Assembly (NCBI GenBank): GCA_020348925.1
Contig: CP070758.1
Span: 3,611,688 to 3,675,687, forward strand
From: Gemmatimonadota bacterium
GTDB lineage: Bacteria; JBHIER01; G020348925
Direction: 5' to 3'
DNA: 64,000 bases
Part shown: positions 815-61,867 of the stretch, one piece after another
Layout of the letters: the number at the start of each line of letters is the position of its first letter
Numbering within the stretch: the first letter of the stretch is position 1
Notes under the pieces: generated by a model
Databases searched by the model: none
What the model saw: only the letters and a program-made list of their open reading frames with translations
Told to the model about the DNA's origin: nothing
Made by a program: the position numbers and the translations under genes

Positions 815-2191
815 GTGGAAAGAATAACAGCGAAAGGGATATCTCTGAGGAATATAAGTGTTTCAATGTGGAAGGTGGCGCTGATACAGGGCGTGGGAAT
901 TTTAGCGTTCCTGTATCTTTTTTTTCATAAAGAGCTTGGGATACTGGGGATACTTCTTTTCTGTTCCGTATTGGCTGGACTCCTGATCCTGTTTGAGCCA
1001 AAATTGGGCCTTCTCTTATGCATCGCTTTCAACATCACGAGCGCTTCTGCCTTTTTTCTTGGCGGTTTGTATCTGGGTGTTGCGGCGGTGACTATTGCAG
1101 CCTGGATTCTACAAAGATTGGCCACCGAGCCAGTTGTTCTTCGGTCTCCTCAGAATCAGCTCATTTATGCATTTACAGCAGTGGCAACTTTCTCCCTCGT
1201 TTTCTGTACCGATCTTGGTCGCGGGTTCGAGTCAATGACGGTCTATTTAAAAGTTGTCGCGTTATACATCTTGATTGTTAATATCGTCGACTCGGCAAGA
1301 TTCTTGAAAGTGGTATTATGGGTCATTATTCTATCCGGACTTTCAATTTCGCTTTTGGGTATGTATCAATTTCTCTCTTCACCCCACTTTGCGGTATGGA
1401 TGAACCGAATTGCAAGTACCAGACAAGACCCAAATAATCTGGCCCTGACGCTTGTTTCTGTGTTTCCCTTAGCAATTGCACTTCTGAGGGCCGAGAGAGG
1501 AAAAAAGAGAAAAATATTCCTGTTTTTTGTTAGCGTAATTATTTTTTTTACAATTCCACTTACTCTCTCAAGAGGTGGATTCCTCGCTTTAAGTGCTATT
1601 CTTTTTGTCTTTATGATGAAAGCTCGGAAGAAAAAAATAGCCGTGTTGCTCCTTGTATCGATTATAGGATGTTCAATCCTTCTTCTTCCTGGTGAAGTCT
1701 GGGAGCGGATTGGAACATTAAGTGCAAAGTCGATCGATCGATCCATTCAGATGCGTATGATGCTTTTTAAGGGTGGTCTCAATATGTTTCTTGATCATCC
1801 ACTTTTTGGGGTTGGCATTGGAAATTTTATAATCCATTCTGTGCATTATTCAGGGGTGTTCATACCGAGCTTCGCCCATAATATGTTTATACATGTCGCT
1901 GCAGAGATGGGTATTTTGGGAATTCTTTTTTTCTCATCTTTACTTTGGATGACGTGGCGATATCAACGACGAGTGCAACAGGCGGCTTTTCACGAAAACG
2001 ATTCGTTCTTTCTCCAGATATCGCAGGGTCTGGAAATATCCCTTATCGGCTTTTGTGTCGGATCTTTATTCTTGTCGCAGCATTTCAATAAGATGCTGTG
2101 GATAATTATTGCGCTGACCGTGAGTATCAACCATATTTATTTTCAGAGACAACAATCGGTCATGCATTCGAAGGAAACGGGTTTTGACTGA
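815..2191 (+). CDS. O-antigen ligase / Wzy-like membrane protein
   Basis: Many TM segments; DPNNLA, TLSRGG, HPLFGVGIGNF and AHNMFIHVAAEMGILG motifs; start uncertain. Confidence 0.85.
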   Translation: MERITAKGISLRNISVSMWKVALIQGVGILAFLYLFFHKELGILGILLFCSVLAGLLILFEPKLGLLLCIAFNITSASAFFLGGLYLGVAAVTIAAWILQRLATEPVVLRSPQNQLIYAFTAVATFSLVFCTDLGRGFESMTVYLKVVALYILIVNIVDSARFLKVVLWVIILSGLSISLLGMYQFLSSPHFAVWMNRIASTRQDPNNLALTLVSVFPLAIALLRAERGKKRKIFLFFVSVIIFFTIPLTLSRGGFLALSAILFVFMMKARKKKIAVLLLVSIIGCSILLLPGEVWERIGTLSAKSIDRSIQMRMMLFKGGLNMFLDHPLFGVGIGNFIIHSVHYSGVFIPSFAHNMFIHVAAEMGILGILFFSSLLWMTWRYQRRVQQAAFHENDSFFLQISQGLEISLIGFCVGSLFLSQHFNKMLWIIIALTVSINHIYFQRQQSVMHSKETGFD

Positions 2192-2310
2192 GAATGGGAA
2201 CAGCCTTCTCGGAGAGAAACATCAGGGATTTCAATGTATTGATCCCTGCATAAAGATGCAACCCGGTATGTTCTTCACCGCATGGTCGATCGTGAGTCTG
2301 AACTAATAAA

Positions 2311-3450
2311 ATGAAAATTTGCCTTGTATGTAATGCCAGGAGTATCCACTTTCAAAGATGGGCAAGGTATCTTCAAATACGAGGCCACAGGGTAAAAATG
2401 TTTTCTCAGGAATTTGAATCCATTCGTGGTGTTGAGGTTTCGAAATTGGGTGCTCCGAAGGCCCCATTTCCGATGTTCAAGTCAGTTAAAAAAATTTTAA
2501 AAGCACTTTATAGAATTGAAAGAGCTTTCAATATGAAGAGAGTACTGAAGGAGTTCAAACCTGATATTGTGCATGCTCATTTTTTAACCGATTCGGGTTG
2601 GATCGCTTCATGGACAGGGTATCATCCGTTGATCTTGACTGCTCATGGATCGGACGTGTTAGTGCATCCGAAGCATTCCCTGATTGACAGAATGGTAGTT
2701 CGTTTCGCTCTGCATAAGGCTGATGTTGTCACTATTGTTGCGCAGCACATGAAGAGAAAAGTGATAGAGCTGGGGTGTGCGCCTTCAAAACTTGTTCATC
2801 TTTCAAACTTTGTTAACACCGATCATTTCAACGCAATTTCACGGGAGCGACGGTACCGGGGAACCAGGCTTGCGAACCCTCTGATTATCTGTGTCAGAGG
2901 TCTCAACCCGATTTACAATGTGAGAATGCTCATAGAGGCCGTACCGAATGTTGTCGAGGAAATTCCTGACGCACGCTTCCTTATAATTGGTGACGGTGAC
3001 CAGAAAGAACAATTGGTGACTCTCACATGTCAACTGAAGGTGAATGGCTTCATCAGGTTTATTTCACATGTACCTCATGAGGAGCTTGCACGATATTTCC
3101 AGCAAGCGGATATCTACGTTTCAACCTCCCTATCCGACGGTCTTAGCGTTGCTCTGCTTGAAGCGATGGCCTCGGGACTTTATCCGATAGTGACCGATAT
3201 CCCTGGAAACAGAGAAATCATTGAGGACGGAGTCAACGGTTTCTTGATCCCGATAGGGAATACGGAAGCTCTCGGCGCACGAATCATCGAAATTATCAAC
3301 AAACCGAAACTTTTTCAAACCGCTTTCAAGAAAAACTCCGATCTCATCAGATCGAAGTATGATGAGAAACTGGTCATGAGCAAGATAGAGGAGTTATACA
3401 TGGGTCTCAGTGGAACAAAGGGGATAAGACGGTCCTTTAGAAAGGAATAA
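2311..3450 (+). CDS. Glycosyltransferase family 4
   Basis: PDIVHAH, HGSD and DGLSVALLEAMASG motifs. Confidence 0.9.
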   Translation: MKICLVCNARSIHFQRWARYLQIRGHRVKMFSQEFESIRGVEVSKLGAPKAPFPMFKSVKKILKALYRIERAFNMKRVLKEFKPDIVHAHFLTDSGWIASWTGYHPLILTAHGSDVLVHPKHSLIDRMVVRFALHKADVVTIVAQHMKRKVIELGCAPSKLVHLSNFVNTDHFNAISRERRYRGTRLANPLIICVRGLNPIYNVRMLIEAVPNVVEEIPDARFLIIGDGDQKEQLVTLTCQLKVNGFIRFISHVPHEELARYFQQADIYVSTSLSDGLSVALLEAMASGLYPIVTDIPGNREIIEDGVNGFLIPIGNTEALGARIIEIINKPKLFQTAFKKNSDLIRSKYDEKLVMSKIEELYMGLSGTKGIRRSFRKE

Positions 3451-7491: not shown

Positions 7492-7729
7492 TTTTGATAA
7501 GTAGCGCGGGATTGGACTTGTGCGCAGACTCAATACTTGGCGCTAGCGGTGTCTCATAGTATGCGCGAATTCCCGGTCGTCTTTTCTCATGTCTGTTCTC
7601 TTCAGAAACAGTCGTTCCGGTCGATGTACNNNNNNNNNNNNNNNNNNNNNNNNNNNNNNNNNNNNNNNNNNNNNNNNNNNNNNNNNNNNNNNNNNNNNNN
7701 NNNNNNNNNNNNNNNNNNNNNNNNNNNNN

Positions 7730-9528: not shown

Positions 9529-9707
9529 GCTCTTCCAAACCTTGCAAAAACTTCGTACTCGTTCGTTCAGGAGATGTCTCTTGAACGAAAAATAGCAGAG
9601 GACTTAAGTCCCTTTCCGTTCATCCCTAATGGGGATATCTCTCTGACGATCTTCAATCCCTCTAACTTCTCCATCGTCTATACTCGGAGGGAATCTCACC
9701 CTTACCC

Positions 9708-9751
9708 AAACAAAAGAAAACCTCCCAGAGGTTCAATATCTCCGGGAGGTT
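9708..9751 (-). terminator. Minus-strand intrinsic terminator, probably the original terminator of the 11525-12430 gene
   Basis: Minus strand reads AACCTCCCGGAG-loop-CTCTGGGAGGTT-TTCTTTTGTTT. Confidence 0.7.
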
Positions 9752-9801
9752 GTATCACTTGAATCCTTGGACCCTTGAATCCTATGTATTACTTCATGTT
9801 C

Positions 9802-9822
9802 GTATCATTTGACCCCATGAGG
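9802..9822 (+). repeat. Left inverted repeat of the DUF1670 element
   Basis: 19/21 match to the reverse complement of 11505-11525. Confidence 0.85.
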
Positions 9823-9837
9823 ATTGTGGTTTATATT
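9809..9837 (+). promoter_or_regulatory. Sigma70-type promoter for the DUF1670 pair, with the -35 inside the left IR
   Basis: TTGACC (9809-14), 17 bp spacer, TATATT (9832-37); RBS GGAGG 9865-69; ATG 9875. Confidence 0.6.
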
Positions 9838-9874
9838 CGCATTTAACATTGCATTTTTTCTCATGGAGGTTCAT

Positions 9875-10690
9875 ATGATAGTCCAATCTAAAGATCCTTA
9901 TGGTTCTATCCGGTTGAAATCCAAGAACGTTAAGAATGCCATCGTTCAGAAGATCTCCCAGGACTTCAACCTGACACCTATTATTGCCGAAGCGTACTTT
10001 CGACAAATCTCTGCCTACTTCAACGAGCACCTCAACATCAAACTTTCATCAGGCCAGATCGCCTATGAAGCTATTGCCGCCGAGGAGCCACCCAGCAAAC
10101 ACATCGCCCTGGCCAGAAAAATCACCACCACGCTGACCCTCAATGACTTCAATTCCGATCTACAGATTCTGGCTGACCAGGGCCTGGCAGGTTTGAGGCG
10201 ACATCGCATCCTCAGACTCACCAGAGAAGCTCATGACCAGAGTGCCGTCCTCTCCTATGAAGACTTGGCTGTCCTATTAACCACCAGCCCGGCCACCGTC
10301 AAACGCGATATCCGGGCACTGCGACAAAGGGGCTTGTTCATCGTGACCAGAGGATGGAAACACGACATGGGACCCGGCATCTCCCACAAAACTCAGATCA
10401 TCGACCTCTACCTCAAAGGATACCAGTTCACACAGATCGAGCAGAAAACCAATCACTCCGAAACCGCCGTGCTCAAATACCTCAAGCACTTTACCCAGAC
10501 TGTCCAACTCCACACCCAGAACTTCTCACCAGGACAGATCCGAACCGTCACAGGCTTCTCTGACAAACTCATCGGCGAATACATCGAACTGTACAAACAG
10601 TATCAGCATCTTGACAACCAACGGTTGAAGCTGTTACTAAACCCCGAACCCAGGGAAAAAAAAGGAAACACCGATGAAAAAACTCTCTAA
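9875..10690 (+). CDS. DUF1670-like protein A
   Basis: RLTREAHDQ..LSYEDLAVLL, TRG..HDMGPGISHK.QII.LYLKG and HS..AV.KY, the pattern I recall for DUF1670; RBS GGAGG before ATG 9875. Confidence 0.75.
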   Translation: MIVQSKDPYGSIRLKSKNVKNAIVQKISQDFNLTPIIAEAYFRQISAYFNEHLNIKLSSGQIAYEAIAAEEPPSKHIALARKITTTLTLNDFNSDLQILADQGLAGLRRHRILRLTREAHDQSAVLSYEDLAVLLTTSPATVKRDIRALRQRGLFIVTRGWKHDMGPGISHKTQIIDLYLKGYQFTQIEQKTNHSETAVLKYLKHFTQTVQLHTQNFSPGQIRTVTGFSDKLIGEYIELYKQYQHLDNQRLKLLLNPEPREKKGNTDEKTL

Positions 10691-11477
10691 ACAGGACACC
10701 TGTCTCAAGAAGTTCCGACGCATCAACGACAAATCTCTTAAACAGCTTCTTCTCTATCGGTTCCTCAACCACTACGGCTACGATAAGGGAGAAATCAGCG
10801 CCAGAGCCATTGTCGATGATATCATTAAACTCATCGAACGCTACTTCATCCTGGCCAATCCTCAACCCGAAGGCCTCTACATCAACTACGGTCATCTGGT
10901 CTGGATGGCTGTTGATGTCGAAGCGCGGCACAAACGAGGCCAGAGAATGCTCAACACAAAGCTCAAACCCGTGCTGTTGACCTTTCTGGCTGACGAGGAC
11001 ATCGAGTCCCTCAAAGAAGGCTTCTCATCTCGTCAGCTCCGAATCCGACGGATGGTCAGATGGTGTGAACAAGCCTATGACCAGGGAGCATTACTCTCTC
11101 AACTGGACCTGGCTGTTCTACTCAACGTCTGCGATGCGGCAGTCACCGACTATGTCAATGAATATCAAAGAACAACGGGGCGAATCCTTCCCACCAGGGG
11201 AAACATCCATGACCTCTCCGGCGCCATCACTCACAAACGGGAGATCATTGCCCTCTATCTACAGGGCTATCTCACCCCGACTATTGCCAGAAAAACCAAC
11301 CATTCCAAAGAGGCTGTCGATCGATACATCAAGGACTTTGAAGCAGTCCAAACACTCTATCAACATGGCATCTATGACCTTGATCGTATCGTCCAACTGG
11401 CCAGACTCAGTAAAAAAGTGGTTCAACAATACCTCGATCTAATACCCAGGGAGAAAAACCTTGAAAAATCAACTTGA
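10674..11477 (+). CDS. DUF1670-like protein B, paralog of A, overlapping its 3' end
   Basis: RWCEQAYDQGALLSQLDLAVLL, PTRGNIHDLSGAITHKREIIALYLQG and HSKEAVDRY. Confidence 0.75.
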   Translation: MKKLSKQDTCLKKFRRINDKSLKQLLLYRFLNHYGYDKGEISARAIVDDIIKLIERYFILANPQPEGLYINYGHLVWMAVDVEARHKRGQRMLNTKLKPVLLTFLADEDIESLKEGFSSRQLRIRRMVRWCEQAYDQGALLSQLDLAVLLNVCDAAVTDYVNEYQRTTGRILPTRGNIHDLSGAITHKREIIALYLQGYLTPTIARKTNHSKEAVDRYIKDFEAVQTLYQHGIYDLDRIVQLARLSKKVVQQYLDLIPREKNLEKST

Positions 11478-11504
11478 CATCACTATATTTTTTCATGATT
11501 TATC

Positions 11505-11525
11505 CCTCCTGGGGTCATATGATAC
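11505..11525 (-). repeat. Right inverted repeat of the DUF1670 element
   Basis: CCTCCTGGGGTCATATGATAC, complementary to the left IR. Confidence 0.85.
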
Positions 11526-12430
11526 TATTTCATCAACACCATCCGTTTCGTGGCCGTGAAATCATTCGCCTCAATTCGGTAAAAGTAGACCCCACTGGCC
11601 ATATCGGACGCATTCCAATCGACCTTGAGATAGCAGGCCTCCTGTCTCCTGTCCACCAGCACCTCCACCACCTGCCCCAGCAGGTTGTAAACCGATACCT
11701 TCACCTTCGCCGCCTCCGGCAAGGCATATTCGATACGCGTCACAGGATTGAAGGGGTTCGGATAGTTCTGGGCCAGACTGTACGCCGCCGGCGCAAAGTC
11801 ACTGGCTTTCACAGTAAACATTGAACCATGCCCGAAACCGATCCCCTCATCAGCGGTGAAGACAATCGGCTCCACAACATCAATACTCACCTCGTCCACA
11901 TCATGTACCACGGTGAACGGAACACGCACCACCGAACCGGCTCCGGCCTCTATAGATTCTCCCCTCATGCTCGACAGGAAGACCACCAGCTCTTCGCCGA
12001 CAATCCTGGAATGAACCTCCATCCCCTGAGACCGCTGCGTCAGATCAGGGTTGCCCGGTATCACCATATCCTGATCGTACCGAAACCGCAGCACCATACC
12101 GGCCACATCCACCTCGGAAGCCACACTCACCGGCACGACCACAGTCCTGCCACCCACACCCATCACATCACCCATCTGTACATCGGTCACCGTCACCTTG
12201 GGATCGCACACACCCACGGCCCGGTTGATACACTTCATCAAATCGATGACGTTCACCAGGCCGTCGCCGTTGGCATCGGCCGCCCAGATCAATGTCTTCG
12301 GGTCGAAAACATCTTCCAGCGAACCCAGGCTCTTCTCGCCAACTATATGGTACAGCATCTCAAACAGATCCATCAACGTCACCGTCGTATCCGGCACCCC
12401 GGACGAACCCGTCACATCACACTTGGCCGG
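11525..12430 (-). CDS. Secreted protein C-terminus with dockerin-like, cohesin-like and FlgD-Ig/T9SS-like sorting domains; partial at gap
   Basis: ADANGDGLVNVIDL; VVVPVSV..FRYD cohesin-like pattern; LAQNYPNPFNP...GVYFYRI...KRMVLMK. Confidence 0.8.
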   Translation of the reverse strand, partial: PAKCDVTGSSGVPDTTVTLMDLFEMLYHIVGEKSLGSLEDVFDPKTLIWAADANGDGLVNVIDLMKCINRAVGVCDPKVTVTDVQMGDVMGVGGRTVVVPVSVASEVDVAGMVLRFRYDQDMVIPGNPDLTQRSQGMEVHSRIVGEELVVFLSSMRGESIEAGAGSVVRVPFTVVHDVDEVSIDVVEPIVFTADEGIGFGHGSMFTVKASDFAPAAYSLAQNYPNPFNPVTRIEYALPEAAKVKVSVYNLLGQVVEVLVDRRQEACYLKVDWNASDMASGVYFYRIEANDFTATKRMVLMK

Positions 12431-12530
12431 NNNNNNNNNNNNNNNNNNNNNNNNNNNNNNNNNNNNNNNNNNNNNNNNNNNNNNNNNNNNNNNNNNNNNN
12501 NNNNNNNNNNNNNNNNNNNNNNNNNNNNNN

Positions 12531-12675
12531 AGTGGAGGTCTTGGTCGATTCGGATCTTGAAGCCGGGTACTACAGCGTTTCTTGGGACGCCTCCGGAGTG
12601 ACCACAGGCGTGTATTTCTTCCGTATCGTGGCATCGAACTATACGGAGACAAGGCGCATGGTTTTCATGAAGTAG
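12531..12675 (+). CDS. C-terminal fragment of a sorting-domain protein; partial at gap
   Basis: VLVD...AGYYSVSWDAS...GVYFFRI...RRMVFMK. Confidence 0.75.
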
Positions 12676-38751: not shown

Positions 38752-38851
38752 NNNNNNNNNNNNNNNNNNNNNNNNNNNNNNNNNNNNNNNNNNNNNNNNN
38801 NNNNNNNNNNNNNNNNNNNNNNNNNNNNNNNNNNNNNNNNNNNNNNNNNNN

Positions 38852-56478: not shown

Positions 56479-56578
56479 NNNNNNNNNNNNNNNNNNNNNN
56501 NNNNNNNNNNNNNNNNNNNNNNNNNNNNNNNNNNNNNNNNNNNNNNNNNNNNNNNNNNNNNNNNNNNNNNNNNNNNNN

Positions 56579-61110: not shown

Positions 61111-61867
61111 NNNNNNNNNNNNNNNNNNNNNNNNNNNNNNNNNNNNNNNNNNNNNNNNNNNNNNNNNNNNNNNNNNNNNNNNNNNNNNNNNNNNNNNNNN
61201 NNNNNNNNNNCGGGGGTAAAACTCAAGAATGAAATTCGCTTGGATTATTAATAAAATCAACGTAAATGTAACGTAATATAAAAATATTTATAGAGTTAAA
61301 AAGAATGTTGGTTTGAACATTGTACCGCCCTACTATCCACGATTCTGTGATATGTCATTACGGGTTTATCCAGGAATCTCCTGAGTGGAGCGTGTGTTAA
61401 AAAAAGCGAGGAGATTTCGGCATCCTAGAACAGGTTCCGGCCGGAATAACAGTTGTGAATAAAGCAGGTGAGGTATACCAGTATTTTATCATCCTTGAAA
61501 AAGGATGATCCAAGCAATGCCACTGAGCAACATGTGTAACCTGAGCAAATCGTGGTGCTTCAATTGAAATTCAGGATTTCAATCTAAAATTATGTTCATC
61601 GCTACAGTGTTTGTGAAAACGGTTTGACAGGTGATCATTCCCGTTGGTAATGCCGTAAGAACGACATGGAGCTTTGGTTGTACTTGGCGTCACGATTAGA
61701 TACGCGTGTATATCGAGAGAGGCTCGGTGAGCGTTTTGAAACATATAAACGTGCCTCTCTTGTGAAGGTGAGACAACAGAGGGGTGTCATTCACGTCCGT
61801 TCAATTCGAGTACAATTTCGTCGTCATGCATAAATTTCCAAATCAGGCTTCTCCCCTGAATCTCGCA

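Follow-up and report, generated by a model that had tools for sequence, protein, structure and literature searches.

In the genome of a Gemmatimonadota bacterium, two paralogous genes of the DUF1670 family lie between inverted repeats at the 3' end of a gene for a type IX secretion (T9SS) C-terminal-domain protein. The locus raises the question of whether such a gene pair can be a mobile element in its own right and, if so, what carries out its insertion. An earlier note on this DNA had proposed a minimal mobile element here, and its statements on the sequence of the locus were all found to be correct on re-check. The stretch analysed, referred to as the window, comprises 64,000 nucleotides of contig CP070758.1, and the copy lies within a 4701-bp contig (window 7730-12430) between two 100-N assembly gaps. 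It is concluded that window 9795-11530 is probably an intact, recently active copy of a family of site-specific insertion elements whose genes are the two DUF1670 paralogues, A and B, a judgement that takes in a role for both in recombination.

Limits and parts of the element

The features of the locus are collected in Table 1. The limits of the element can equally be worded as 9795-11528 with TT on either side. A and B are the only genes in the repeated unit and their reading frames overlap.

Table 1. Features of the element and its host gene, in window positions
Feature	Position	Strand	Remarks
Displaced intrinsic terminator of host gene	9705..9751	-	hairpin arms 9719-9730 and 9740-9751; stem 9734-9718 with T-rich tail
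Host gene's original last codon (AAG) and stop (TAA), now displaced	9789..9794	-	alignment with uninterrupted paralogue L196
Insertion element	9795..11530	+	1736 bp, counting the supplied Lys codon; from metagenome contig, L003/L002 ends and family junction tables
Element-borne spacer (GAAC on minus strand) and triplet ATG	9795..9801	-	identical in L003; within the collapsed X1 contig
Left (gene-distal) inverted repeat	9802..9822	.	core TCATTTGAC at 9805-9813, half-palindromic, conserved in relatives
Promoter-like site TTGACC-17-TATATT	9809..9837	+	consensus match only, 10/12; overlaps left repeat, upstream of A
ORF A, DUF1670 protein, 271 aa	9875..10690	+	Pfam, alignment, AlphaFold model, dN/dS
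A8 run, candidate slippage site for A-B fusion protein	10656..10663	+	inside a 50-nt zone open in both frames
ORF B, DUF1670 paralogue, 267 aa	10674..11477	+	Pfam, alignment, AlphaFold model, dN/dS
Right (gene-proximal) inverted repeat	11505..11525	.	core GTCATATGA at 11514-11522
Last codon AAA (Lys) and stop TAG brought by the element, present end of host gene	11525..11530	-	sequence; family junctions
Host T9SS C-terminal-domain gene, 3' part	11531..12430	-	Por_Secre_tail; truncated by assembly gap 12431-12530

The two 21-bp inverted repeats match at 19/21 positions, as had been noted, and at 90% complementarity they stand at the top of the 43 inverted-repeat pairs found. Because three further 21-nt pairs (71-81%) occur within the same 2.1 kb, the pair is by itself only modestly above chance, and it draws its weight from conservation in relatives. 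There the motif is present on both sides in 59/67 loci, with a repeat core of the CAWWTGAC type and a palindromic core (G)TCAWATGA(C), and pairs that are only about 33% identical (L188 and L189) retain the repeats, the target and the junction layout. The spacing between repeat and element end is not the same on the two sides (3 and 7 nt).

Copies and distribution

The proposal that the segment is mobile is supported by further copies in this genome, in metagenomes and in closed genomes. Two more element ends were found in this genome at contig breaks, with 99-100% identity, and loci L003 and L002 have the same ends as the window copy and diverge in sequence outside them. A fourth match to the repeat core (about 408,511) falls within an ordinary coding region and was dismissed as chance. 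A 1740-bp contig from a sediment metagenome (X1) is the equivalent of window 9791-11530 with 0 differences and has a depth of 81.4, about 16 times that of the contig crossing the right junction in the same metagenome (5.14). Among the best 120 homologues of B, 103 are on contigs of 5 kb or less. In closed Poribacteria genomes copies are numerous, measure about 2.0 kb and have the same ends but different flanks; in one such genome 15 of the 17 loci examined have both canonical junctions. All full copies in closed genomes hold A and B only, and an internally deleted derivative was also found (L199). At one locus in one Poribacteria genome (L198) a gene for an Rpn/YhgA-like nuclease lies between DUF1670-type ends, suggesting that other enzymes can ride in, and perhaps act on, ends of this type. 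At E <= 0.001, 1336 cluster representatives were obtained among 1.84 billion proteins. The family was also found in MAGs labelled Zixibacteria and Eisenbacteria and in a methanogen (an archaeon), and there is a DUF1670 family match in Methanosarcina acetivorans. A tblastn search of a plasmid collection with B gave no match.

Neither the empty-site joint (9797>11534) nor a circle back-joint was present among the contigs of four sediment and mangrove metagenome runs. The single joint seen in those runs, 9734>11529, has just 23 nt on one side and is most likely a paralogous gene end. No orthologous empty site was found in G001, the only genome of the same family, where the matches were to paralogous T9SS tails only. 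At locus L096 the flanks are adjacent in 3/5 other Poribacteria genomes; this was rejected as a clean empty site because an indel of about 4.2 kb takes the T9SS gene as well.

The host gene and the choice of target

The minus-strand gene ending at 11525-11527 encodes a Por_Secre_tail protein (E 2e-11 over the last 110 aa) that, in agreement with the earlier reading, ends MVLMK-stop. It had further been argued that insertion displaced the original stop and terminator and left the protein intact. The left flank, read on the minus strand, is ATGAAGTAA, and a terminator-like hairpin with a T run follows at 9718-9751. In the paralogous T9SS gene L196 the gene end, stop and downstream region are contiguous, which bears the argument out; L196 aligns with the right flank of the window copy up to ATGAA and with its left flank from ATGAAGTAA on. 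This alignment supports the pairing of the flanks in the window, which itself comes from short-read assembly; another contig (X3) joins the left flank of L003 to a right flank of the window type with 2 differences.

Preservation of the host reading frame is the rule across the family. The ORFs flanking relatives are of the Por_Secre_tail type in 34/34 and 62/68 cases, and insertion into T9SS C-terminal-domain genes is of a single orientation and occurs at the last sense codon, or in one subgroup of elements at the stop codon. Several genome loci lie outside T9SS genes (L099, L120, L168 and L187). This genome has 81 T9SS-type gene ends besides that of the host. Because each genome offers dozens of such harmless landing sites, the element is able to multiply without inactivating genes.

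The junctions and the supplied codon

The segment had been described as bounded by a direct repeat, TTCAT, and this was taken to be a duplicated target core. The repeat is present at 9793-9797 and 11529-11533, but it is not a duplicated target core, the same 5-mer being found on both flanks in 2/45 and 0/75 relatives. Comparison across the family assigns the CAT of the left TTCAT to the element and the TT of the right one to the element's own Lys codon, and the repeat is evidently mimicry with no 5-bp target duplication. The triplet ATG at the left end mimics the penultimate codon of the host. In relatives each element lineage has one fixed triplet beside the left end, independent of the host codon opposite, and the distal 5-mer is TATAA in 71/75 genome loci. 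A Tn916-like 'coupling sequence', with the distal 5-mer taken from the previous site, was ruled out, since the distal triplet is lineage-constant and its composition is unlike that of host codons.

The element, judged from its junctions, brings its own last codon and TAG. It starts with ATAG in 41/45 metagenome loci, and the replacement codon at the gene-proximal end is AAA, AGA, CGA or TAA, followed by TAG. The distal end consists of a spacer ending in AAC and the lineage-specific triplet, beyond which the native last codon and stop remain. When the last codons on the two sides are compared, the second base is equal in 44/45 loci and the first in 40/45; for the triplet before the last codon the sides match at 9, 35 and 16 of 45 for its three positions. 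The junction dinucleotide, which by lineage is AA, TA, CG or AG, is equal on both sides in 39/45 metagenome loci (the rule being broken in the other 6) and in 69/75 genome loci. Four Arg-type loci (L012, L016, L068 and L092) have AG proximally and CG distally, so that the junction reads AGA and the displaced native codon CGN. Exchange can be located to the boundary between the penultimate and the last codon in those cases in which the first base of the latter is not the same in element and target. No fill-in duplication of more than 2 nt was found.

The DUF1670 proteins

The assignment to DUF1670 was confirmed by HMM search against PF07900 (220 model positions, curated cut-off 25 bits), with A scoring 194.9 bits (model 2-220) and B 210.3 bits (4-220). 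The paralogy of the two proteins is also upheld, B as query matching the A gene at 35% identity (E 6.6e-22). In the literature searched, no function or link to mobility is described for DUF1670/PF07900. A is made up of an N-terminal helical domain, a winged HTH, a conserved loop (TRG..D.GPG.SHK) and a second HTH; B carries the loop as PTRGNIHDLSGA.THK. The invariant form of this loop between the HTH domains is TRG..D.G..S/T-H-K, with Ser in A (Ser170/His171) and Thr in B (Thr186/His187), and its polar character is common to both paralogues down to about 30% identity. AlphaFold models (pLDDT 80.7 for A and 75.6 for B) are helical with one beta hairpin, the conserved loop being the least confident part and the arrangement of the domains uncertain (pTM 0.46-0.47). 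Values of dN/dS (0.10-0.22 for A and 0.14-0.18 for B) indicate that both are under purifying selection.

A is found directly upstream of B in 77/80 metagenome loci; in the 3 exceptions the upstream sequence is shorter than 240 nt. In the A/B overlap of relatives a run of at least 7 A is present in 62/67 loci, with the frame of B at +1 in 63/67. We infer that slippage at the A8 run of the window copy might yield an A-B fusion. Proteins that hold two DUF1670 units in one chain were found (504-544 aa), the A-type unit coming first in P0190 and P0193, and tandem fusions reach three DUF1670 stretches. Prediction of an A+B complex (alignments A1 and A2) gave a score of 0.19 against a mark of 0.32.

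The earlier note had recognised no known transposase at this locus, and searches of A and B with Pfam, NCBIfam, PDB sequence profiles and Foldseek likewise detected no recombinase domain of DDE, HUH, serine or tyrosine type. Pfam returned DUF1670 and HTH families for the two proteins and nothing else, with no match to the rve (IS3 DDE), DEDD or Y1_Tnp/HUH families, and it returned nothing for six alternative-frame ORFs of the element. No resolvase was found in Pfam or NCBIfam and the models have no alpha/beta domain; a tyrosine recombinase of the Phage_integrase type was found neither by sequence profile nor by fold. Foldseek searches with the models gave 0 matches at E <= 0.001, the weak matches being to tandem HTH or winged-helix proteins, including the double HTH domains of Pax and DUX4. 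Comparison of the element proteins with PHROGs yielded weak regulator-type HTH matches and no more, and the best look-alikes of B without PF07900 in the ESM Atlas (0.76-0.81) were small archaeal HTH proteins, below a meaningful level. No other transposase is linked to the element. Searches for PF04754, the Rpn/YhgA-like family, gave no match in this genome (96.3% complete) or in three other non-Poribacteria DUF1670-positive genomes (3/3 searched; G278, G161 and G158). Non-coding sequence at the element ends ranges from 45 to 171 nt at the left and from 10 to 210 nt at the right. A search of 9 loci with Rfam at a permissive threshold found nothing inside the elements, and returned no more than a flanking tRNA and one chance-level snoRNA match. 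Given ends of as little as 45 and 10 nt and the lack of an Rfam match in them, an RNA guide is unlikely to be general.

How the element may be inserted

Conservative site-specific exchange, which the earlier note had preferred to classical transposition, does suit the evidence better. On balance we lean towards A and B, possibly with an A-B fusion made by slippage, being themselves the recombination machinery. A and B would bind the palindromic cores as dimers and bring both ends together; the joined ends would then read like a gene end, with a hydrophobic codon, a Lys or Arg codon and a stop, and A/B would carry out a conservative exchange between them and a look-alike T9SS gene end. The invariant loop between the two HTH domains is a candidate active site, and it could also simply be a minor-groove-binding linker. 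It is conceivable, if somewhat doubtful, that DUF1670 proteins make up an unrecognised class of recombinase or transposase in which HTH modules and a Ser/Thr-His-Lys loop, acting as an A/B heteromer or a slippage fusion, bring about scar-free, orientation-specific insertion at a last codon.

A and B may instead merely recognise the ends and the target, strand exchange being left to a host enzyme such as a Xer-type tyrosine recombinase (in an IMEX-like manner) or another housekeeping nuclease or ligase. That no catalytic domain was detected is in keeping with this, as is the resemblance of A and B to pure DNA binders, with two HTH domains each and weak HTH fold matches, and a spread over distant phyla and an archaeon could be served by a universal host enzyme. 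We nevertheless regard it as rather unlikely. The invariant polar loop in both paralogues suggests more than binding, two large conserved proteins with fusions of up to three DUF1670 stretches would be much machinery for targeting alone, and no dif-like 11-6-11 site was seen at the ends on visual inspection. It is improbable that A/B are a cryptic transposase, of cut-and-paste or copy-paste type, which cuts with a 2-bp stagger and leaves a genuine AA duplication, as IS630/Tc1 does at TA, even with an equal dinucleotide at most junctions, terminal inverted repeats, a bipartite HTH like the DNA-binding part of Tc1/IS630 and the weak Pax and DUX4 matches in its favour. Neither protein has a DDE or RNase H-like domain or fold, and proximal AG against distal CG in four independent Arg-type elements is not possible by fill-in duplication; the unequal spacing of the ends from the repeats and the mimicry of the target by the element end, needless for a DDE mechanism, also argue against it.

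The deleted derivative L199 and the Rpn-like copy L198 keep their ends, which are thus usable in trans, and the unit might on that account be non-autonomous, moved by an unlinked canonical transposase with A and B as passengers or regulators. This is made very improbable by the maintenance of an undamaged A-B pair under purifying selection in hundreds of lineages, by closed-genome full copies that hold nothing else, by the lack of any other linked transposase and by the negative searches for PF04754 in the four non-Poribacteria genomes named above. It is scarcely credible, finally, that the locus is no mobile element and is either a regulator operon of ordinary kind that follows a T9SS gene or an artefact of assembly: the HTH proteins do look like regulators and the copy is on a 4.7-kb contig of a gapped assembly, but identical units stand at many unrelated loci in closed genomes, the collapsed high-depth contig has the exact limits of the element, its ends are conserved and the paralogous site L196 is uninterrupted.

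Implications

Prokaryotic insertion sequences are classed by the chemistry of their transposases, and to our knowledge only a handful of these chemistries are known. The coding capacity of this abundant, mobile family consists of two proteins without a recognisable catalytic domain, and A and B would represent either a new kind of recombinase or a new way to hijack host enzymes. If they are the recombinase, DUF1670 would be a further enzymatic type beside the DDE, DEDD, HUH, serine and tyrosine enzymes, and the family would be a naturally occurring inserter by which the stop codon at the landing place is rewritten. The tails of T9SS cargo genes form a multi-copy safe landing pad at which the element supplies a replacement codon and stop, and it is by virtue of these that it can spread without killing genes. 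The displaced terminators may alter 3' regulation of dozens of secreted-protein genes, and a compact, sequence-specific, scar-free inserter would be of interest to genome engineers.

Comparison with known systems

The family is apparently undescribed, no description having been found in full-text searches of the literature. Elements of the IS630 / Tc1-mariner group encode a DDE/D transposase with an RNase H-like fold and insert at TA with a 2-bp duplication. The DUF1670 element is likewise small, has inverted repeats at its ends and a bipartite HTH and shows a fixed dinucleotide where it inserts, but it has no DDE domain, two genes rather than one, a gene end of about 20 nt as target instead of TA and no true duplication, with which the four AG/CG loci are incompatible. 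IS3 elements have orfA and orfB, a programmed -1 frameshift giving the OrfAB fusion, a DDE (rve) domain in orfB and a 3-5-bp duplication. Overlapping ORFs, an A-rich slippery run in the overlap and an HTH in the first ORF are held in common, whereas in the DUF1670 element the second ORF encodes no DDE enzyme but a paralogue of the first product, a shift of mostly +1 would be required and a 3-5-bp duplication is lacking.

IS110/IS1111 elements have a DEDD enzyme and subterminal repeats, and a long non-coding end encodes an RNA that guides them to specific sites. Both they and the DUF1670 element have subterminal inverted repeats, are strict as to site and orientation and cause no regular duplication; the DUF1670 element differs in having no DEDD domain and in the shortness its non-coding ends can reach. 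IS607 uses a small serine recombinase and IMEX elements exploit the host XerCD with no recognisable recombinase of their own. Conservative exchange without duplication is shared with both, and the want of a recognisable recombinase with IMEX, but the DUF1670 element lacks a resolvase domain or fold and encodes two large conserved proteins. In IS200/IS605 and IS91, which employ HUH Y1/Y2 enzymes, subterminal hairpins take the place of inverted repeats, whereas DUF1670 ends are inverted repeats with loop-less palindromes of 8-10 bp. As to Rpn/YhgA-like elements (PF04754, PD-(D/E)XK Transposase_31), such a gene lies between DUF1670-type ends in one Poribacteria genome only. Integrative elements that enter a tRNA gene or another gene at its 3' end bring a substitute for that end, and Tn7 uses attTn7 behind glmS. 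Like these, the DUF1670 element lands harmlessly at a conserved gene end, and like the tRNA type it restores that end. By contrast it is of 1.7-2.0 kb, has neither Tns proteins nor a recombinase of the tyrosine or serine type, and has as its target a multi-copy protein-coding tail in place of a single site.

Ends and flanks of the element in the window

The two DUF1670 genes, A and B, lie between 21-nt arms that are complementary at 19 of 21 positions and that rank first among the 43 inverted pairs found in 9600-11750. As three further 21-nt inverted pairs of 71-81% are present in the same interval, the inverted repeat is unconvincing taken alone. The pentamer TTCAT occurs on both sides of the segment, and the minus-strand gene that enters its right end (the host gene) is a type IX secretion (T9SS) cargo gene with a Por_Secre_tail domain and the C-terminus MVLMK. 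The left flank encodes Met-Lys-stop on the minus strand, and a hairpin and a T run come next. The earlier note had described these arms, repeats, genes and flanks by direct reading of the sequence, and that description holds. It had also proposed that the insertion displaced the native stop and terminator while leaving the protein intact. This is backed by L196, a T9SS paralogue of the same genome in which gene end, stop and homologous downstream terminator region are all contiguous, and which aligns with the right flank of the window up to ATGAA and with the left flank from ATGAAGTAA onward. L196 is the nearest approximation to an empty site obtained here and supports the earlier reconstruction of the uninterrupted gene end.

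A second promoter-like site near the right end, recognised by consensus match only, points outward, reading antisense into the host gene from its 3' end. Another T9SS-type gene end is found past an assembly gap. The window contains five such gaps, so that gene models spanning them are not real.

Coordinates of features in the window and in compared loci
Feature	Sequence	Position	Strand	Remark
Element	window	9795-11530		1736 bp
TTCAT, left	window	9793-9797
Triplet CAT	window	9795-9797		left end
Left arm	window	9802-9822
ORF A	window	9875-10690	+	overlaps B; between arms
A run	window	10656-10663		8 A, uninterrupted
ORF B	window	10674-11477	+	overlaps A; between arms
Promoter-like site	window	11461-11489	+	TTGAAA-17-TATATT
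Right arm	window	11505-11525
Host gene stop	window	11525-11527	-
TTCAT, right	window	11529-11533
T9SS-type gene end	window	12292-12675	+	C-terminus RRMVFMK
Assembly gaps (n=5)	window	7630-7729, 12431-12530, 38752-38851, 56479-56578, 61111-61210		100 N each
Element plus host gene	L096	1398-5622
Copy outside T9SS gene	L187	2256-4288	reverse
Distant relative	L188	2218-4018
Distant relative	L189	1744-3719	reverse
Rpn-like element	L197	~1150-2484		left end only
Rpn-like element	L198	1279-2722		complete
Deleted derivative	L199	~1316-1764

Junctions and the last codon

Along the coding strand of the host gene, the proximal junction, which abuts that gene, consists of host codons, a final codon, TAG TA and the repeat core. 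The distal junction starts with the repeat core and continues with a 7-nt spacer that ends in AAC, then a triplet, then the native last codon with its stop. Across the 45 metagenome loci in which both junctions are readable, the two sides share the second base of the last codon in 44 and its first base in 40; for the three bases preceding that codon the counts are only 9, 35 and 16. An identical 5-mer is present on both sides in only two of these 45 loci, one of which is the window, and in none of 75 genome loci, 71 of which have TATAA as the distal 5-mer irrespective of the host codon opposite. The proposal of the earlier note that TTCAT is a duplicated target core does not survive this comparison. 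The CAT triplet at the left end belongs, judging from these junctions, to the element, and the TTCAT repeat of the window arises because this triplet equals the commonest penultimate codon of the host.

In four independent elements of the Arg type (L012, L016, L068 and L092) the proximal codon is AGA and the displaced native codon is CGN. Fill-in duplication is incompatible with this pairing. It follows that the element brings its own last codon plus TAG, this codon being AAA, AGA, CGA or, in a subgroup landing at stops, TAA. On the sense strand the point of exchange falls between the penultimate and the last codon, and any overlap there is at most two bases and only where element and target agree. 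Codon types are paired: elements of the Lys type are found at Lys codons, those of the Arg type at Arg codons and stop-type ones at stops. The ends of the element, once joined, would themselves read like a gene end. Such matching, together with gene-end-like joined ends, is what we would expect if, in a conservative site-specific exchange, both partners are recognised by the same proteins.

The target

The ORF entering the proximal end is of the Por_Secre_tail type in 34 of 34 cases (the window and 33 metagenome loci); one more metagenome locus with enough flank has a 5-codon ORF only and is outside the 34. For 68 genome loci the counts are 62 for Por_Secre_tail, 65 for CHU_C and 66 for FlgD_ig. 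Insertion is in one orientation throughout. Exceptions to the target are several Poribacteria copies (L099, L120, L138, L140 and L168) adjoining short or non-T9SS ORFs, and the copy in L187, which lies outside a T9SS gene, inside the loop formed by a terminator-like palindrome, its two flanks being inverted repeats of each other. The present genome has 81 other gene ends of the T9SS type.

In one Poribacteria locus (L096) the outer flanks of element and host gene are adjacent in three other Poribacteria genomes (G041, G043 and G045). About 4.2 kb is missing there, which makes element and T9SS host gene a single indel.

Copies in the genome and in public data

The genome is a draft in which contigs are joined by 205 runs of 100 N, and the element copy of the window is on a contig of 4701 bp. 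Two further ends were found, a left end of 108 bp (L003, 100% identity) and a right end of 129 bp (L002, 99%), each cut by an assembly gap, as is expected where a repeat breaks assembly. The L002 end abuts the last codon of a gene whose tail, judged by eye from the sequence, is of the T9SS type, and the flank of L003 again reads Met-Lys-stop. L002 and L003 may be the two ends of one second copy.

Part of the stretch was present, always as contigs, in 20 public runs from nine studies, mostly sediment metagenomes, with at least half of the sampled words in eight runs. In one of these (X1) a 1740-bp contig matches window 9791-11530 with 0 differences at a depth of 81.4, and a contig across the right junction has a depth of 5.14, contig depth being taken here as a sign of repetition and not as copy number. 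The 1740-bp contig, with limits that coincide with those of the element, bears the signature of a collapsed repeat. Among the best 120 homologues of B, 103 are known solely from contigs of 5 kb or less. The reading of the earlier note, that the segment is mobile, finds support in the two additional ends, the collapsed contig and genomes with multiple copies.

In a 2193-nt contig from another run (X3) the element is preceded by the left flank of L003 and followed by a right flank of the window type; the contig spans window 9788-11690, with two differences in the right flank (11628 and 11635). It stems either from rearrangement between copies in some related strain or from chimeric assembly across the repeat.

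Breadth of the family

Scanned with B, metagenome contigs yielded 224 relatives; 80 loci with 58-76% identity were kept. An A-type gene is immediately upstream of B in 77 of the 80, the remaining three having less than 240 nt upstream. Enough flank is available for 67 units (the window and 66 loci). In 48 of them the best inverted repeat enclosing the pair has a CAWWTGAC-type core on both arms, and a motif of this type is found on both sides in 59 and, within the searched range, on one side only in eight. The repeat core is itself palindromic, (G)TCAWATGA(C), which is the classic form of a dimer binding site.

Genome contigs gave 232 relatives, mostly in Poribacteria MAGs, many of them closed. 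Of the 80 kept, the closest (L092, 80% identity) is labelled Zixibacteria and one is labelled Eisenbacteria. Many copies with the same ends occur within single genomes; in one, both canonical junctions are present in 15 of 17 loci examined, and in these 15 the repeat cores are 1997-2005 nt apart. Of 301 sampled genomes from many families, 10 contain PF07900, mostly as adjacent pairs, and it is also present in the control, Methanosarcina acetivorans. When 1.84 billion cluster representatives were searched with a profile, 1336 matched at E <= 0.001. Two loci about 33% identical to A (L188 and L189) retain inverted repeats with a related core, a T9SS-type gene end and the junction layout. In both, the T9SS gene end abuts the A side and the T9SS gene runs in the same direction as the element genes, the opposite of the family of the window. 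A Poribacteria derivative (L199) is internally deleted and MITE-like, having lost most of A and B; both ends and repeat cores are retained, and it adjoins a T9SS gene end.

Proteins A and B

Both proteins match DUF1670 (PF07900) over its full length, at 194.9 bits (A) and 210.3 bits (B) against a cut-off of 25, so that the assignment in the earlier note is borne out by HMM, and Pfam places a winged HTH and a homeodomain-like HTH in each. They are paralogous, query B matching the A gene with 35% identity (E 6.6e-22). NCBIfam and PHROGs gave weak HTH matches to A and B and nothing else, and Pfam gave no matches to six alternative-frame ORFs within the segment. Estimates of dN/dS were limited to relatives with computable dS, which is near saturation, and were 0.10-0.22 for A and 0.14-0.18 for B (four of nine pairs each). 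On these values, both genes are under purifying selection.

In the AlphaFold models (pLDDT 80.7 and 75.6, pTM 0.47 and 0.46 for A and B respectively) a helical N-terminal domain carrying one beta hairpin is followed by a winged HTH, a loop modelled with low confidence and a second HTH that has additional helices. Neither model has a Foldseek match in the PDB at E <= 0.001; the best-ranked matches are weak and are to proteins with tandem winged helices or double HTHs, among them SelB, DUX4 and Pax. Profiles of A and B found no relative among solved structures. Conservation is most striking in the loop that separates the HTHs, TRG..D.GPG.SHK in A and PTRGNIHDLSGA.THK in B. It has many invariant residues and is still recognisable in pairs about 30% identical, where the A type has Ser and the B type Thr; residues of the loop include R159, D164, S170, H171 and K172 in A and R175, D180, T186, H187 and K188 in B. 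This loop may serve as an active site or as a linker lying in the minor groove. Long family members contain extra DUF1670 units only, and none is fused to a catalytic domain: five proteins of 504-544 aa have two DUF1670-matched stretches each, with the A-type unit first in the two that have a clear A/B assignment (P0190 and P0193), and proteins of 930-952 aa have three or four. One DUF1670 protein has a CHC2 zinc ribbon.

The A run in the A/B overlap

An uninterrupted run of 8 A, mostly 9 A in relatives, lies inside the zone where the frames of A and B overlap. At least 7 A are present in 62 of 67 metagenome units and at least 6 A in 69 of 80 genome loci, and the B frame, open upstream through the run, is +1 relative to A in 63 of the 67. 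The run looks like a programmed slippage site that would give an A-B fusion, and single-chain proteins with two DUF1670 units exist. Alternatively, the run may be kept by selection at the protein level for KKK, given that AAA is used for 72% of Lys codons elsewhere in genes of the A/B type.

Candidate enzymes

A and B are candidates for the enzyme, and recruitment of a host enzyme by A and B is a serious alternative. A cryptic transposase making a 2-bp duplication is disfavoured by the AG/CG junctions and because the two element ends lie at unequal distances from their repeats. In view of the selection on A and B and of what the repeated unit contains, it is unlikely that an unlinked transposase moves the element in trans.

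One Poribacteria genome has, at the end of a T9SS gene, a gene for an Rpn/YhgA-like nuclease (PF04754, E 1.7e-30) flanked by ends of the DUF1670 type. In the complete example (L198) a 371-aa Rpn/YhgA-like putative transposase at the T9SS last codon replaces A and B; L197, which has the left end only, is about 75% identical to it. PF04754 was not found in searches of the present genome (96.3% complete) and of three other DUF1670-positive genomes, and is therefore not a general partner. An RNA guide directing insertion is unlikely to be general, since the non-coding ends are as short as 45 and 10 nt; Rfam gave no matches within the elements.

Comparison with known elements

All membership tests against known enzyme families were negative, and the portions of the literature reached by a full-text search on DUF1670, PF07900 and related topics contained no description of such an element. 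The interpretation of the earlier note, a new site-specific mobile element without a known transposase, is right in substance; its 5-bp duplication gives way to an element that brings its own codon and stop. In function the present element resembles both Tn7, with its safe-site strategy, and those integrative elements that rebuild the 3' end of the gene they enter. In form it resembles a small IS with inverted repeats and overlapping ORFs.
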